Shown: positions 16,886-40,582 of the stretch, one piece after another
Layout: every line of letters starts with the position of its first letter
Position numbering within the stretch: the stretch's first letter is position 1
Origin: Acidobacteriota bacterium
GTDB taxonomy: Bacteria > Acidobacteriota > UBA6911
Direction of reading: 5' to 3'
Assembly: GCA_963664705.1 (NCBI GenBank)
Contig: OY761556.1
Span: forward strand, 1,280,001 to 1,344,000
DNA: 64,000 nucleotides
Notes under the pieces: model-generated
Told to the model about the DNA's origin: nothing
Seen by the model: the letters and a program-made list of their open reading frames with translations, nothing else
The model's database searches: none
Position numbers and translations under genes: made by a program

Positions 16886-16930
16886 TCTGGAATCTGGAAT
16901 CCGGAATCTGAAATCTGGAATCTGGAATTC
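16886..16930. repeat. TCTGGAA-type heptamer tandem repeat
   Basis: about six units TCTGGAA/TCCGGAA/TCTGAAA downstream of the PPTase. Confidence 0.85.
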
Positions 16931-24094: not shown

Positions 24095-24171
24095 GCGCCC
24101 ATAGCTCAGGTGGATAGAGCATCTGCCTTCTAAGCAGAGGGTCGCAGGTTCGAATCCTGCTGGGCGTACCA
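24095..24171 (+). tRNA. tRNA-Arg(UCU)
   Basis: acceptor GCGCCCA/TGGGCGT, anticodon loop CT-TCT-AA, GTTCGAATC T-loop, encoded CCA. Confidence 0.96.
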
Positions 24172-24226
24172 GAAAAAACAAGCCATATCAACCACTTAGC
24201 CATCCTGCCATTTTTAGCCAATTCCG

Positions 24227-24347
24227 GAAAACCTGAAGAAAACCTGAGGAAAACCTGAAACCGAAAACCTGGACACCCACGAAAAAGGAAAAACCTGGAC
24301 ACCCATGAAAACCTTTGAGGGAATTGAGGAAAAACCTGGACACCCAC
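24227..24347. repeat. left-end repeat cluster of the Y1 transposase element
   Basis: reiterated AAAACCTG units; GGACACCCA at 24271, 24297 and 24338. Confidence 0.85.
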
Positions 24348-25777
24348 GATTTGTTCGTCTGACCGAATGAGGAGTTTCGGAAAGGTCTTGGCGGAAATTC
24401 CCGACCGATGATTCATGTTGCTGAGGAATACGGGAAGAAAGCTTGTAATGGGCTTAGCTGTTACTGCTTGAGGCGAGTAAACAAGCCTGTTGCGAGGAGA
24501 GATGCGAAGTCTGAAGGGGCGCGTAGTTTAGATCCGGAATAGATCCTATTGATCTGGAATGCAATTGGCCTTGAGGCTATGTAAAAGCAGACCGAGCGGC
24601 CGACAAGCCCTTTATCCAATGCCGGTTGAGCCGTCCCGCGAATTCACGCATGTGCGTCAGGCTGCCGGCGGCCACCTGGAATGCGGAACCAAAATGCGAC
24701 ACTGTTTCAATCCATTCCTTGGGAATAACTCCAATGCGATTCAGGATCGGGGCAAGACGGCTATCAATGAACCCGCGCTTGTCAGAGCGAATCATGCGTC
24801 CCGATCGGTCGACCAAATCAAAATACTCGGCTGTGGATGTGTCGAGGATACCACGCCGGCTCGGGGTTGATTGAATTGGGGCCAACCAACAGTCTGCAGA
24901 ATCCCGAAGAGAAGAGCTCGAAGCAGTTCCGGGTGTTGAGGGAGCATTAATCGTGTCATCAGTTTGACAAGGAGAACAATCGAAAGCCGGGCCCGAATCA
25001 CTGGGTTGAGGGGCTGGTTGCTGGGACAAGGATTGGCGATGCCAGGCGCGGATACGCTCCTGAATGCTGGTGAAGTCGCTGTCTTCGGGAGTGGAGGCAG
25101 CGCCGGCCCGAACCATATTCAGATCCACATAGACCAAGCAAGCTGTAATGGCAGAAGCATCCAGAAGCACCAGGCATTTAAAGCGAGATTCCCAGAAGCG
25201 GCCCTTGACCTTATCTTCCTTGTTAGCCTTGCGAGCGATGAATTCACTGAGTTTGGCCACGAACCAGCTCAGGCTGCCCAGCCGCTTGCGCAGAACAGTA
25301 ATGTGTTCCGGACAATCTGCTAATGCCTGGATCTGTTCGACCCTAGGAGGAAGAGGCTTTTTGCTGGTGCGCGGTTTTCGGGGGCAGAGTTCTAGCCATC
25401 GGGCGGCGACGTCGAGATCGGACCAGGACTCAAGAATGTCGGGTCGGGTTCGCAAGATGGAATGCACGTGGTTTTCCATGATGGCATAACCGCACACGTC
25501 AATGGCGAAGATGCCGGCAAGTTGTTTCAAACGATCGAGAATCCATTTTTTGCGATGGGAGAAATCCCGGCCGCTAAGAGGGTCATACCCGCAAAGAAAA
25601 GATCTGCGGACACATCGACTGATGCAATGATAAACGCCTTCCTCACCTTCGATGACATAGATGTTTCTTGCCAATCCCATGGTTTGCCTCCTTGCATAGT
25701 TACTAATGGCGAACCTTGGGAATTGAGCGAAGAAAAATTGGAGGCAATGGAACAAAACAGTGGGTGTCCAGGTTTTT
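24330..25777 (-). mobile_element. RAYT-like (IS200/IS605-superfamily HUH Y1) element with 18-bp inverted ends
   Basis: AAAAACCTGGACACCCAC (24330-24347) and its reverse complement (25760-25777) flank the transposase gene. Confidence 0.75.
24577..25680 (-). CDS. HUH/Y1 tyrosine transposase (RAYT-like)
   Basis: VYHCISRCVRR, GYAIMENHVH (HUH), FWESRFK, YVDLNMVRAG (catalytic Tyr); GGAGG RBS. Confidence 0.88.
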   Translation of the reverse strand: MGLARNIYVIEGEEGVYHCISRCVRRSFLCGYDPLSGRDFSHRKKWILDRLKQLAGIFAIDVCGYAIMENHVHSILRTRPDILESWSDLDVAARWLELCPRKPRTSKKPLPPRVEQIQALADCPEHITVLRKRLGSLSWFVAKLSEFIARKANKEDKVKGRFWESRFKCLVLLDASAITACLVYVDLNMVRAGAASTPEDSDFTSIQERIRAWHRQSLSQQPAPQPSDSGPAFDCSPCQTDDTINAPSTPGTASSSSLRDSADCWLAPIQSTPSRRGILDTSTAEYFDLVDRSGRMIRSDKRGFIDSRLAPILNRIGVIPKEWIETVSHFGSAFQVAAGSLTHMREFAGRLNRHWIKGLSAARSAFT

Positions 25778-25787
25778 TCCAGGTTTT

Positions 25788-26645
25788 TCAGGTTTCCCAG
25801 GTTTTTCTACCGGGGCTGATTTTTCCGGCGAAGAAAGCCCAGGCCAAAATTGCCAGAAGGGCTCCCGCGAGGACATCGGTTACATAATGTTCGCCAATAT
25901 GAACCAGCGAATAGCCCATCAGGACGGCATAAATCCATCCATAACGGCCCATTCCTAAGCCTACAACCGTGGCTACCGCCATATGCACGCTGGGCATGGC
26001 CGCCACATCATTAGCTCCTGAAACCGCCATTCCGTAGGTATAGAGTTCAGGAAACAGAAGGGAAAAAAGCTGCCGCTGGATGCCGGCTGCGTGCCCCTGT
26101 TCTGCTGCAAGCCATGGGGGCGCGGTGGGCACAAGGGCATGAATAACAAGCGCGACTGCATATACGGATACAAGGGAGAAGACAAATCGTGAAAAGCACT
26201 CTTTCCTGCGCCAGATGTAAAAGCCAGCCAACGGGGGAGCAAAGTAGTATGTCATGTGGACCACAACCCCCAACCAGTCAAGAAACGGCAGGTGCAGAGC
26301 CTGCAGCCGAACCGTCGGAAGCGTCCCAAAACCAATAATCCGGTCCACGATCATTGGATAGTGCACCCTGACCGGTTGGCCAAGGTTGTCAAGCATCGGA
26401 CGCGTAAGCGCGAATGCGACAAAACTGAGCGCATAGATAGTCCACAATTTGAAGTCGCCGGACTCTCTTTCCCGAACCGCAACCCAAGCCAGTGGCAGAG
26501 CAAAAAGCAACGCATAGGAGCCGGGCGCAAGCCTCGTTTTAGGGAATAGTAATGCGCAAAGTGTCAAAAGTATTATGGCGGGGCGCCAGAGCTTTTGAGC
26601 AACAGAGCTCAGGCTGTTCAGAGTGGTCGCTGCGTGGCCGTTCAC
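25788..26645 (-). CDS. PAP2/Aur1-like membrane phosphoesterase or phosphotransferase
   Basis: multiple TM helices; PTAPPW, AAMPSVH, GEHYVTDV; stop codon lies inside the transposon-end repeats. Confidence 0.8.
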   Translation of the reverse strand: MNGHAATTLNSLSSVAQKLWRPAIILLTLCALLFPKTRLAPGSYALLFALPLAWVAVRERESGDFKLWTIYALSFVAFALTRPMLDNLGQPVRVHYPMIVDRIIGFGTLPTVRLQALHLPFLDWLGVVVHMTYYFAPPLAGFYIWRRKECFSRFVFSLVSVYAVALVIHALVPTAPPWLAAEQGHAAGIQRQLFSLLFPELYTYGMAVSGANDVAAMPSVHMAVATVVGLGMGRYGWIYAVLMGYSLVHIGEHYVTDVLAGALLAILAWAFFAGKISPGRKTWET

Positions 26646-32257: not shown

Positions 32258-33169
32258 ATGAAACGCAGTCGGACACCCGCCTGTCTGGTCGCGGTATCTC
32301 TCTTCTGTGTGCTTCCGTTGCTCCACGGCCAGGACCGCCGGCCGATTCCGTCCTTTCGCGCTGATGTGGTGAATGTGTTTGTGAAGGTCGCGGTCACCGA
32401 TCCGTTGAACCGCTATGTCACCGGCCTCGAAAAGGAGCATTTCAGGATTTACGAGGACCGTGTTCTGCAGACCATCACCCACTTTAGCCAGGAATCGGCT
32501 CCCATCAGTGTCGGCCTGATTTTCGACGTCAGCAGCAGCATGGGATATCGCAAGAATTTCCGGCTGGCTAAAAAGGATTTTCTCCCTTTCCTGGAATCGC
32601 GCAATCCGGATGACGAGTATTTTCTGGTGGCCTTCAACCGGACCGTCCGCCTGATTGAGGCATTTACCGAAGACAGCGCCGAAGTCCAGAACGGCATCGC
32701 AGTGCAGAAAAGCGGCGGCACTACCGCCTTATACGATGCCGTGTATATGGCACTGGACCAGATCAAGAGAGGGAAGAACGAAAAGAAAGCGCTGATCCTC
32801 ATAACCGACGGCGAAGACAACAGCAGCCGATACAGCGTCAACGAGGTCCGGGAATTCAGCAAAGAGTCCGGCGTCCAGATCTACGCGATCGGGCTGACCG
32901 GGCCGGAAGGGTACGGCAGTGGTCTGCTGCGGCAGCTGGTCGGAGTGACCGGAGGACGCGTGTTTTTCCCGAGTGGTTTGAACGATCTGGACTATTACAT
33001 CGATCTGATTCACACGGAATTGCGCAATCAATACCTGCTGGGCTATGTGCCCAACAATCCCGCGCGCGATGGCAAATGGAGGGAGATTACCATCAAGCTG
33101 GACGCGCCCCGCGGATTTCCCAAGCTGTCGATTCGTGCAAAAAAAGGATACTACGCGCCTCCAAACTAA
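32258..33169 (+). CDS. VWA domain protein (Acidobacteria type)
   Basis: signal peptide, MIDAS DVSSS, TALYDA, ITDGED, QYLLGY. Confidence 0.88.
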   Translation: MKRSRTPACLVAVSLFCVLPLLHGQDRRPIPSFRADVVNVFVKVAVTDPLNRYVTGLEKEHFRIYEDRVLQTITHFSQESAPISVGLIFDVSSSMGYRKNFRLAKKDFLPFLESRNPDDEYFLVAFNRTVRLIEAFTEDSAEVQNGIAVQKSGGTTALYDAVYMALDQIKRGKNEKKALILITDGEDNSSRYSVNEVREFSKESGVQIYAIGLTGPEGYGSGLLRQLVGVTGGRVFFPSGLNDLDYYIDLIHTELRNQYLLGYVPNNPARDGKWREITIKLDAPRGFPKLSIRAKKGYYAPPN

Positions 33170-33226
33170 ACGTCCCACATCCAACATCCAACGTCCAACG
33201 TCCAACGTTTCAACGTTTCAACGTTC
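33170..33226. repeat. short AACGTCC-type heptamer array
   Basis: AACGTCC/AACATCC/AACGTTTC units between convergent genes. Confidence 0.85.
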
Positions 33227-33581: not shown

Positions 33582-33885
33582 ACGTCCCCCATCCCCCACG
33601 TCCAACGTCTCAACGTCCCAACGTTCCACGTCCCACGTCCCAACGTCCAACGTCCCAACGTCCCAACGTCCCAACGTCCAACATCCCACGTCTAACGTCC
33701 CAACGTCCAACGTTCATCGTCCCAACGTCCAACGTCCCAACGTCCAACGTCCAACGTCTCAACGTCCCACGTCCCAACGTCCAACGTTCCAACGTCCAAC
33801 GTCCAACGTTCCAACGTCCCAACGTCCAACGTTCACCGTCCCAACGTCCAACGTCCAACGTCCAACGTTCACCGTCCAACGTTCA
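33582..33885. repeat. long AACGTCC(C) hepta/octamer tandem array (about 300 nt)
   Basis: dozens of AACGTCC, AACGTCCC, AACGTTCC and AACGTCTC units. Confidence 0.95.
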
Positions 33886-35661
33886 CCGTCCCCCACGCTC
33901 TCTCCTCAACAGCCAGACATCTGCTTCCGTGGTAGTCTGGCTGAAGTAAATCAGCCGGTCATCCGCGGAGACCGCGAAACCTCTTTTTGCAACCGACTGC
34001 GGAGCCACCGAAAGGACCGGATGCGTTCTTCCCGTGCGGCTGTCCAGAAGGTCGATCCCGCCATCGTGCGAAAACAGCAATCGCCGATCGTCGCTGAGCC
34101 AAACCGGATCCATTCCGTAGCGGGTGAGGCGTTCGAATTTATTCGAAGCCACGTGGTAAATTCCTATCCCCGCTTCCGATCCATCCGGGTTGATCAGCTG
34201 ACCCGCGATCATACTGCCTGTTTTTGACCAGGACCACGCCTGAAAATAGCCGCCAAACTGATCCAGGTGAATATCGAGCGGCACCTCCACCTTTTTCCTG
34301 AAATCCATCAGGAACGAACGGATGCCATAGATGGATCCGGCAATGCCCTTGCCGTCGGGAGACCAGAAGGGGGAGACCACCATGTGTTCGGGATAGTTCG
34401 TGATCCGCCGCAGCCCGGTCCCTTCGAAGTCAATGGTCCAGGCTTCATATTTGCCGCTGCGATTGGAAAAGAACGCCAGTTTTTTCCCGTCCGGCGACCA
34501 GCGCGGACCGCGATCCTGGTAAACATCGTTGGTCAGTTCCCGCAGCCCGATTCCGTCTGTTCCCACAACAAAGAGGTCTTCCTGTTTAGCCCAGGTGTTG
34601 AAGGCCAGCCACTTTCCATCGGGAGAAAGGGAGGGACGCGTGGCCTGCCTGGATCCGTGGGTGATCGCCAGCGGTTCGCCCCGGGCCAGTTCAGAGACGC
34701 TGTCGAACGGCACTTTATACAGGTTTGCGGTAAACGAGTACTGAACATAGGCGAGCCTGCCGCCGTTGGGGGCCACACTGATGTGCGAGCTGTCCGCGGA
34801 GGGGGTGGAGACCAGTTCCGGCTGCCCGAGCACTTTCCCTGTTTCCTCATCCATCGGAACGCAATACAGATTCATGTTGCCGGACCGGTCGCTGGAGAAG
34901 TAGAGCGCGTCTCCGGTGGCCGACCAGACCGGATTCCAGTTGATTGATCCCGTTGTCACCCGCACTGGCTGCGGGCTGGCTCCTTCCGGAATCTGCGCGG
35001 GGATCGTCCAGACATTCCGGCCGCCGCCGGTATCAATCGCCCAGAACGCAATGCGCTTGCCATGCGGCGACCACTGCGGCTGCACTGCATCCCCTTTATA
35101 GAGAAGCCGTCGTTCGCCCCGGGGATAATCGGCAATCCAGAGGCCGCTGCCGGTGGCCGCGCGGTCTTCGGGGCGTGTAATGCTCTCGCCGGCCAGCAGG
35201 ATTTTTCGCCCATCCGGCGACCATGCGGGATTGTAGCCAAAGTCCGTAACCTGCTGCACCGCATTGGTGGTTGCGTGCATGACAAAAATGCCGCCACCAT
35301 TCCGTTCGGAGCGGAATGCAATCAGCTTTCCATCGGGGGAAAATGCGGGCTGCGTGTCGTCGTCGGGGCAGTCTCGCGTGAGGTTCATTGGGATCCGGCC
35401 CCCGACTTTGGCCAGCATGATATCCCAGTTGCCCTCGGTGCGTGCGCTGTAGACGAATGTATTCTCCGCCGGGGAAAGGCTGGGGAAATACTCCGGTCCC
35501 GGCTGGCTCGTGAGCTGCAGAAAGGAAACAGTTTCATCCGCCCCGTTGCCGAAAAGGGTGCCTTTCAAATACGCGTGGATGATGAATGCCAGCGCAATGA
35601 CCACGCAGAGGCCCGCGATAATCTTGATAAGCTTCCCTGGAATGGATCCTGCGGACGACAT
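33883..35661 (-). CDS. membrane-anchored TolB-like PD40 beta-propeller protein
   Basis: N-terminal TM helix; repeated P.WSPDG..IAF.S.R.G motifs. Confidence 0.88.
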   Translation of the reverse strand: MSSAGSIPGKLIKIIAGLCVVIALAFIIHAYLKGTLFGNGADETVSFLQLTSQPGPEYFPSLSPAENTFVYSARTEGNWDIMLAKVGGRIPMNLTRDCPDDDTQPAFSPDGKLIAFRSERNGGGIFVMHATTNAVQQVTDFGYNPAWSPDGRKILLAGESITRPEDRAATGSGLWIADYPRGERRLLYKGDAVQPQWSPHGKRIAFWAIDTGGGRNVWTIPAQIPEGASPQPVRVTTGSINWNPVWSATGDALYFSSDRSGNMNLYCVPMDEETGKVLGQPELVSTPSADSSHISVAPNGGRLAYVQYSFTANLYKVPFDSVSELARGEPLAITHGSRQATRPSLSPDGKWLAFNTWAKQEDLFVVGTDGIGLRELTNDVYQDRGPRWSPDGKKLAFFSNRSGKYEAWTIDFEGTGLRRITNYPEHMVVSPFWSPDGKGIAGSIYGIRSFLMDFRKKVEVPLDIHLDQFGGYFQAWSWSKTGSMIAGQLINPDGSEAGIGIYHVASNKFERLTRYGMDPVWLSDDRRLLFSHDGGIDLLDSRTGRTHPVLSVAPQSVAKRGFAVSADDRLIYFSQTTTEADVWLLRRERGGR

Positions 35662-40078: not shown

Positions 40079-40092
40079 CTTCCTCAAAAAAA

Positions 40093-40582
40093 TTCCAGAT
40101 TCCAGATTTCAGATTCCAGACGGGGTTCCGGCGGCATCAGCGCCATGCAAGCAGCCAAGCCCTTGCCGGCCAGACGCTGCCTCCTGCCTCCTGACTCCTG
40201 CCCAATTGTGGACACCCATGAATTGAGGATAAAAAACAGTGGGTGTTCACAATTGTGATTCCAGATTTCAGATTTCAGATTCCAGACTGGGTTCCGGCGG
40301 CATCAGCGCCATGCAAACAGCCAAGCCCTTGCCGGCCAGACGCTGCCTCCTGTCTCCTGTCCCCCTAACCACTAACCACTAACCTCTAACCAATTGTGGA
40401 CACCCATGAATTGAGGATAAAAATCGGTGGGTGTCCACAATTGTGCCACAATTGTCGATTCCGGATTCCAGACGGGGTCCCGGCGGCATTAGCGCCATGC
40501 AAGCAGCCCAGCTCCTGCCTGCCAGACGCTGCCTCCTGACTCCTGTCTCCTGACTCCTGCCTCCTGTCTCCTGTCCCCCTAA
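40093..40582. repeat. triplicated about 90-nt unit interleaved with two 53-bp GGACACCCA palindromes and heptamer repeats
   Basis: units start near 40112, 40278 and 40464; palindromes at 40203-40255 and 40391-40443. Confidence 0.9.

Follow-up and report, generated by a model that had tools for sequence, protein, structure and literature searches.

Several groups of HUH enzymes with a single catalytic tyrosine (Y1) are close to the system described here. In the text of Quentin 2018 (PMC6006769), TnpA-Y1 proteins of subclass 2.3 are given an NHYH-type HuH motif, a WE pair, a YVDLNP motif, a median HuH-Tyr distance of 110 residues resulting from a 55-aa insertion, and a median length of 325 residues; they are reported there to have no flanks resembling repetitive extragenic palindromes (REPs), no typical features of insertion sequences (ISs) and a mean intragenomic identity of 74.8%. 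According to the same source, subclass 2.3 is nested inside subclass 2.1, with which TIRtrons are mostly equated. The names TIRtron and TIRYT were introduced for Y1 genes lying between terminal inverted repeats (TIRs), with GGGGWSAS as majority consensus and other TIRs allowed (Di Nocera 2013, PMC3733652), while the text of Bertels 2017 (PMC5581495) ranks group 1 of the REP-associated tyrosine transposases (RAYTs), i.e. subclass 2.1, as the most IS-like after group 6. As set out in PMC3333891, cleavage by HUH enzymes yields a free 3'-OH and a 5'-phosphotyrosine, and the amplification of bacterial interspersed mosaic elements (BIMEs) by E. coli TnpA-REP is modelled in its Fig. 7B as a nick, an extension, a second cut and an attack on the Tyr-5'P. 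Here, a stretch of 64,000 nt from an Acidobacteriota genome (G000; contig OY761556.1, positions 1,280,001 to 1,344,000), hereafter called the window, was analysed for a Y1 transposase gene and its reiterated ends. There is good support for a mobile, TIR-bounded Y1 element at this locus, whose ends carry a stutter that is one-sided and site-specific.

The element measures 1,432 bp between its two GGACACCCA motifs and is bounded by a perfect inverted repeat of 18 bp (24330-24347 on the plus strand and 25760-25777 on the minus strand), each arm being composed of 8 nt outside and 10 nt starting from the G of GGACACCCA. The innermost left motif lies at 24338-24346 (plus strand), where homology with two other near-identical copies begins, and the right one at 25761-25769, where it reads TGGGTGTCC. 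On the left, which is the downstream end of the element, seven stutter units occupy 24228-24337 (plus strand), the last base of their AAAACCT falling at 24234, 24245, 24256, 24270, 24296, 24314 and 24337. Two of these units contain a full GGACACCCA (24271-24279 and 24297-24305), which gives three motifs on the left (24271, 24297 and 24338) and one on the right. At the upstream end, the pile (25770-25807, minus strand) consists of four units whose last bases are AAACCT on the inward-reading strand. AAAACCT was counted seven times in 24228-24337 and AGGTTT four times in 25770-25804; across the entire 64-kb window, the AAAACCT 7-mer has 11 and 8 copies on the two strands. A neighbouring PAP2_3-family gene (25788-26645, minus strand) ends in GRKTWET*, its last six codons and stop falling within the right stutter. 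The 18-bp perfect repeats, the triplicated left end and the PAP2 gene that reads into the repeats and stops there, all proposed by an earlier reading of the sequence alone (the sequence-only reading), were thus recovered.

Misassembly had been named as a possible source of these repeats. Logan contigs from runs X1 and X2 cover 24124-24359 and 25719-26500 without a difference or a gap, and contigs from run X5, which belongs to a second sample and study, span 24245-24372 and 25708-25957 with 0 differences; runs X1-X3 may be the source sample. Since independent contigs, including those of a second study, reproduce both piles of repeats, these are real and not an assembly artefact. The pile of one miniature derivative was reproduced by independent contigs as well.

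The transposase gene (24577-25680, minus strand) most likely starts at the ATG at 25680, behind GGAGG, rather than at the TTG at 25755, and codes for 367 residues. Searched as a single protein, it had no match in Pfam or among PDB sequences, and its match to NF047646 was weak (26 bits vs. a cut-off of 80), while Y1_Tnp was matched by 64 of its 126 aligned relatives. An AlphaFold model built from this 126-protein alignment reached a mean predicted local distance difference test (pLDDT) score of 90.8 and replaced an earlier, poor model (pLDDT 60). The closest solved fold is that of E. coli TnpA-REP (4ER8; Z 13.2, root mean square deviation 2.7 A over 159 residues), followed by IS608 TnpA (2VHG; Z 9.9), which bears out the proposed RAYT-like HUH/Y1 enzyme. 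A helical insertion (residues 80-134) and a folded C-terminal part are predicted in the model. In the Pfam search of the 126 proteins, in which the C-terminal part was not searched separately, none of the C-terminal helix-turn-helix domains of subclass 2.1 (Bac_DnaA_C, HTH_23, HTH_28) was found.

In the same 126 proteins, H73 is invariant and H71 and Y184 are conserved in at least 90%. The motifs of the window protein are NHVH (70-73; N70-H71-V-H73), WE (W163-E164) and YVDLNM (184-189, starting at Y184), with a distance of 111 residues between H73 and Y184 (about 111-113). YVDLN is present in 63/63 intact relatives and YVDLNP in 46/63, the window protein departing at the last P. Judged from these motifs and from 33-48% identity to homologues of Alteromonadales and Vibrionales, the protein fits TnpA-Y1 subclass 2.3; the protein tree was built from the relatives only, without subclass reference sequences. 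The family comprises 1,140 clusters at 50% identity (E up to 1e-30), and matches at E up to 0.001, many weak ones among them, were found in 87 of the 151 related genomes. Close relatives carry the Acidobacteriota label, and the gene was absent from the phage records searched.

Ten transposase matches, nine full and one truncated, were found in G000, with flanks that are all different. The window copy (A1), A2 and A3 have 1,432 bp each and differ at 12-14 positions, i.e. they are about 99% (99.0-100%) identical from end to end, and B1, B2, B4 and B5 (1,335 bp) are 98-99.9% identical from end to end, with a single difference between B1 and B2. Homology between copies extends as far as the motif and no further, their flanks being unrelated. 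Copies of near-identical sequence were also found at unrelated sites elsewhere: seven in G034 (97-99%), five in G029 (97-99%), two in G014 (100%) and two in G072 (99.6%). As for GGACACCCA itself, 117 occurrences were observed genome-wide vs. about 34 expected under a 4th-order Markov model, including about twenty miniature or solo sites outside elements, many with stutter. Two 39-bp miniature derivatives are present in the window: one at 40210-40248, 131 nt behind tRNA-His, is made of an end motif, a 21-nt spacer and an inverted end motif with one mismatch, and another at 40398-40436 has a short outer stutter of its own. A near-identical multi-copy unit with differing flanks and miniatures therefore behaves like an IS.

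The end motif was then compared across 75 elements, i.e. nine from G000 and 66 best hits in relatives, after four twice-fetched places had been dropped and the truncated copy excluded. GGACA[CT]CC[AG] was present at one or both ends in 74/75 elements and at both ends in 57/75. A metagenome set of 72 out of 80 loci (eight partial or interrupted matches being excluded) was also analysed, using only ends with enough flank. Homologues of at least 50% identity have the motif at 33/38 ends (on the wrong strand at three), 8 of these 33 being stuttered, and those of 36-45% identity have it at 33/67 ends (wrong strand at one), with 13 of 33 stuttered. The absence of the motif from homologous transposases would have spoken against the sequence-only reading; the motif is instead carried by these elements and metagenome homologues, and the inverted ends are conserved down to 36-45% identity. 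Among isolates, Aeromonas and Shewanella have the motif or a one-base variant on the upstream side only, and Photobacterium sp. GJ3 and Catenovulum adriaticum have a variant, GGACAG-type word with repeats. Folding of the ends is weak (-4.7 to -6.7 kcal/mol over about 70 nt, values without a shuffle control), and no GT[AG]G-tagged hairpin was seen. Three further observations concern the ends. Upstream of a close homologue (73% over 78 aa), the end of locus L021 is a different palindromic word, not GGACACCCA. The downstream ends of L091 and B3 (G000:C1:376066) resemble an upstream end, which suggests that one end may be exchanged for a copy of the opposite one. At position 10 of the end, C and T alternate, even among the copies of one pile.

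Compared with published subclass 2.3, the locus shares the HuH, WE and Y-x-D-L-N motifs, the long HuH-Tyr distance, the C-terminal tail, several copies per genome and the Alteromonadales homologues; unlike the subclass as presented in that publication, it has conserved inverted ends, copies that are 99-99.9% identical and end stutter. The view that a Y1 enzyme with TIRs would be new had to be given up, as such an arrangement is already described as TIRYT/TIRtron (PMC3733652). Like TIRtrons, the present family has a Y1 gene between TIRs and dispersed single, dimeric or clustered TIR copies, whereas its TIR is a core of 9-10 nt instead of a long repeat. The full GGGGWSAS consensus was found at 3/131 ends, GGACAC fitting its last six positions. 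Among the 26 TIRtron examples of that article, no assignment to subclass 2.3 was found, and in its text no description of stutter or of near-identical mobile copies was found; GGACACCCA was not found in four supplement files, the TIR sequences standing in a figure (Fig. 9).

REPtrons (E. coli TnpA-REP with its REPs and BIMEs, PMC3333891) have the closest fold, an amplification model that fits, and small non-coding derivatives in spacers, as here. Unlike REPtrons and RAYTs of subclasses 2.2, 2.4, 2.5, 2.7 and 2.8, whose gene is single-copy, immobile and flanked by GT[AG]G-tagged REP hairpins, the present element has no GTAG-tagged hairpin, occurs in nine copies, codes for a protein twice as long and moves as a unit, which REPtrons appear not to do. 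The core HUH/Tyr fold, the multiple near-identical copies and the absence of a fixed target duplication are shared with the IS200/IS605 family (IS608, ISDra2), from which the element differs by an inverted terminal motif in place of subterminal one-strand hairpins, by a class 2 tyrosine motif, and by having neither tnpB nor a fixed target word. Subclass 1.1 of that family is characterised by a Y---Q motif, a short core-only protein and no TIRs; Y-x-D-L-N, 367 residues and an inverted terminal motif were found here. In the open-access literature, with ISfinder outside the search, no publication on the stutter, on an end motif of subclass 2.3 or on its IS-like spread was found. To our knowledge, every Y1/HUH transposase studied so far works on a single strand and locates its cleavage site through a hairpin and a short guide.

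The anatomy of the stutter was analysed at 131 ends of 74 elements, the downstream end of element C1 being entered in the stutter, unit, joint and target-duplication counts at its inner, degenerate motif. The outer 6-mer next to the motif is rich in A, has T as its last base at 85% of the ends and occurs in 77 distinct forms among the 131 ends. An end's own outer 6-mer recurs in the outer 65 nt at 64/131 ends, vs. 8/131 in the inner 65 nt and 1/130 at 200-265 nt out, while foreign 6-mers recur in 305 of 16,424 trials (1.9%). Up to seven units were found at one end, and nested older ends travel inside newer ones.

Parsing with a seed of a 4-mer plus GG, which forces a motif piece of at least 2 nt, yielded 172 units. 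In 126 of them, the outer part that is shared measures 6-9 nt; only 13 have a shared part of 4 nt, a class for which chance extension predicts more than 100. The motif piece measures 2-3 nt in 112/172 units; other peaks lie at 5 and 9-10 nt, and the longest pieces reach 21 nt. When a 6-mer seed was used and GG was not demanded, 187 of 204 repeats continued into the motif by its first G or more. The distributions of outer length and motif piece indicate copies with a fairly constant starting point outside the end and a variable stopping point inside it. Filler-free units (80/172) have lengths that peak at 9-12 nt (55/80), and unit lengths as a whole have a long tail to 44 nt. At 61 of the 80 filler-free joints, microhomology is 0-1 nt (null 69).

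The repeated flanks in mirror orientation noted on both sides of the window element are there; as a rule of the family they fail, the two ends sharing an outer 6-mer in 6/56 elements, four of these in G000. The mirror-image flank is therefore a trait of the window's subfamily. Nor can the repeated flank be taken as a faithful mirror of the target, given the 77 distinct outer 6-mers and the case of C1, where the unit of neither end matches the empty-site sequence.

The reading to which we give a probability of about 0.5 is that the piles are scars of repeated cycles of nicking, copying and resealing by the element's own HUH/tyrosine transposase. The enzyme would bind the motif and nick the inward-reading strand 6-9 nt outside it, with Tyr184 keeping it attached to the 5' side. 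A host polymerase would extend the free 3'-OH through the outer bases and stop, or be cut, mostly 2-3 nt inside the bound motif, sometimes 5, 9-10 or up to about 20 nt inside. The 3'-OH would then attack the enzyme-DNA link and reseal the strand, leaving one unit per cycle without microhomology. Were the linked strand joined instead to a distant 3'-OH, the element would move, with a joint whose position varies between 2-8 nt outside the motif, so that each new site would gain a new outer sequence, later re-copied in place. Joints without microhomology are expected for ligation-type joining, and the BIME amplification model, applied to a terminal motif, would give one unit per cycle, which fits the unit anatomy.

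Comparisons of orthologous sites bear on when the piles are made. In two pairs of orthologous elements of G017 and G029, L043/L096 (flanks 96.5% and 97.2% identical) and L084/L103 (flanks 91/88% identical), the piles differ, and the presence of stutter is unclustered on a quick protein tree (19 changes vs. a shuffled mean of 18.4). Because orthologous piles differ and stutter is unclustered, a turnover of piles in place is favoured. Several results weigh against repeated nicking, copying and resealing. Each orthologous pair may stem from independent insertions at a hot spot. Extra bases stand between the matched parts in 92/172 units, and 148 of 220 short-filler bases are G or A (67% purine), for which the model would have to include untemplated addition or a further step. 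Microhomology of at least 2 nt was found at 19/80 filler-free joints (null about 11), a mild excess, and substitutions sometimes distinguish neighbouring repeats of one pile, which suggests error-prone synthesis. The outer 6-mer is identical in only 21/86 end pairs from elements at least 97% identical; since the 6-mer should move together with the element if the nick lies 6-9 nt outside the motif, the model fits only with a joint of variable position. At two empty sites of G017, the difference from the filled alleles of G029 exceeds the element and its piles by 50-250 nt, so that neither is a clean empty allele. Finally, a similar stutter marks a truncation joint at a cryptic site, L245 (G028:C7), where ~16 short CCT-G(G)-type repeats connect a host gene to the middle part of a broken transposase gene and a full motif is absent.

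Fillers and errors of this kind are better explained if each pile was made once, at insertion, by iterative template switching: an outward-growing strand made by a host polymerase would run off a template ending 6-9 nt past the motif, re-prime inside the motif several times and finally land on the target. This rather unlikely alternative yields the same unit anatomy and also accounts for the inter-repeat substitutions, the mild excess of microhomology, the stutter of L245 at a joint without a full motif, and a 59-bp direct repeat at C1, which is unique in the genome. The target of B2 likewise reads as a degenerate end with an 8-bp direct repeat, but such a repeat is near chance, only 1/57 elements having at least 8 bp near the piles (null 0.7% per pair), which also means that no fixed target-site duplication was found; a wider search for duplications gave the 59 bp of C1 and one 13-bp match far from the ends. 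Most joints lack microhomology, and a one-time scar fails to explain the differing orthologous piles between flanks that are 96-97% identical, unless these elements were inserted independently. Improbable in our view is that both strands are nicked about one helical turn apart, outside and just inside the motif, and that fill-in and end joining duplicate the stretch between, as in a target-site duplication on the element's own end. The 9-12-nt peak of the filler-free units and the joints without microhomology would follow, and the purine-rich fillers resemble end-joining additions, purine-rich additions at end joining being a property of LigD. Against it stand the unit lengths reaching 44 nt, the absence of a fixed-length duplication at insertion sites, and the distribution of Ku and LigD Prim-Pol, which were found in G000 and not in four other stuttered genomes (drafts of 95-99% completeness); a dependence on Ku/LigD, with these found in one of five draft genomes, is not supported.

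Separate insertions, each followed by imprecise excision at a favoured site, are a quite improbable origin of the units. Some sites were indeed reused: one host gene, present in G000 and G007, carries elements of two species at its 3' end (G000:C1:4159301 and L016:2830), the end piles of one spacer differ between G006 and G028 and those of another between G069 and G071, and nested older ends occur. Yet different insertions bring different outer sequences, while the units of one pile share one, and a pile of up to seven units would require an equal number of visits. Highly improbable are an assembly artefact and ordinary slippage of replication at A-rich runs: the outer sequences are A-rich and most genomes are metagenome assemblies, but independent contigs match both window piles and that of a miniature base for base, the piles are one-sided, anchored on the motif and without microhomology, and a related variant-motif pattern exists in the Photobacterium and Catenovulum isolates.

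Repeated nicking, copying and resealing by the transposase, if correct, predicts from the pile anatomy a cut 6-9 nt outside the motif and resealing after 2-3 nt, and turns the family into a test case from nature for the nick-extend-reseal amplification that was suggested for BIMEs. The locus family also gives subclass 2.3, until now without known substrate, a candidate one, GGACACCCA, with evidence of recent spread. Only tentatively can these elements be put forward as a new mode of HUH transposition, in which a double-ended element would have inverted ends acting as rolling-circle-like nicking origins on opposite strands, the cut being set by its distance from a 9-bp motif and not by hairpin-and-guide pairing. 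Abortive initiations would be logged in the chromosome as a record of the enzyme's cuts at base resolution, the same chemistry might make miniatures and capture host DNA between ends, and these elements (>1,100 clusters at 50% identity, E below 1e-30) would form a widespread IS family bridging IS200/IS605, IS91-like and REP systems.

Concerning target sites, five of the ten G000 elements lie between convergent genes, which make up 17% of gaps (P 0.015, with a crude gene caller), and three of the ten are within 100 nt of a tRNA 3' end. In the window, tRNA-Arg(TCT) (24095-24171, plus strand), with which the PAP2_3 gene is convergent, has its 3' end ~56 nt outside the left pile, a possible target preference. 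A tRNA points at 6/131 ends from 41-154 nt away, where about one is expected; kin are not independent in this count, and selection could mimic the effect. With regard to replication, five of the ten elements are leading and five lagging, a small sample. The Rfam search gave tRNA hits only.

Ten flank queries in relatives returned two unclean empty sites, one site with other DNA, three bearing different end remnants and, in four cases, no close orthologue. For the window site, no empty allele was found, the PAP2 gene having no close homologue in 60 relatives and the tRNA anchor string matching 0/14 pfk loci, and no excision joint was found in four runs on two stretches. A transfer of flanks from the donor site was rejected: the outer 260-nt flanks of nine G000 elements (those of C1 were examined apart) have no second copy, barring tRNA genes and weak paralogues of genes. 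For the additional DNA next to L094, the matches were short and weak only, and neither end's unit in C1 matches its inferred empty site.

In G000:C1:4155541-4159301, the truncated element (first 131 codons) terminates in a duplicated stretch of 10 nt, to which a new end motif is joined, and one of its stutter units overlaps a host stop codon. Its new motif and the far end of B5 enclose B5 and 1.9 kb with an ORF (open reading frame) of 245 aa resembling an exported protein, possibly a cargo-carrying composite. In run X5 (L238:10378), the loose-end consensus of two contigs suggests a B-type end with a B1-like pile and another outer base and flank, a signal too weak to count. The 117 motif sites of G000 are concentrated, with 27 in 1.0-1.5 Mb and 37 in 4.0-5.0 Mb, which hints at local hopping or islands.

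Behind tRNA-His, a 186-bp unit is present about twice (40202-40547), each with a 39-bp miniature GGACACCCA element among heptamer repeats. Imperfect arrays of ACGTCCA-type heptamers (~6 and ~40 copies) flank a small minus-strand ORF at 33169-33225 and 33598-33891, with further heptamer arrays at 16886-16928 and 40092-40575, and a similar array adjoins GGACACCCA sites at G000:C1:1362800-1363005.

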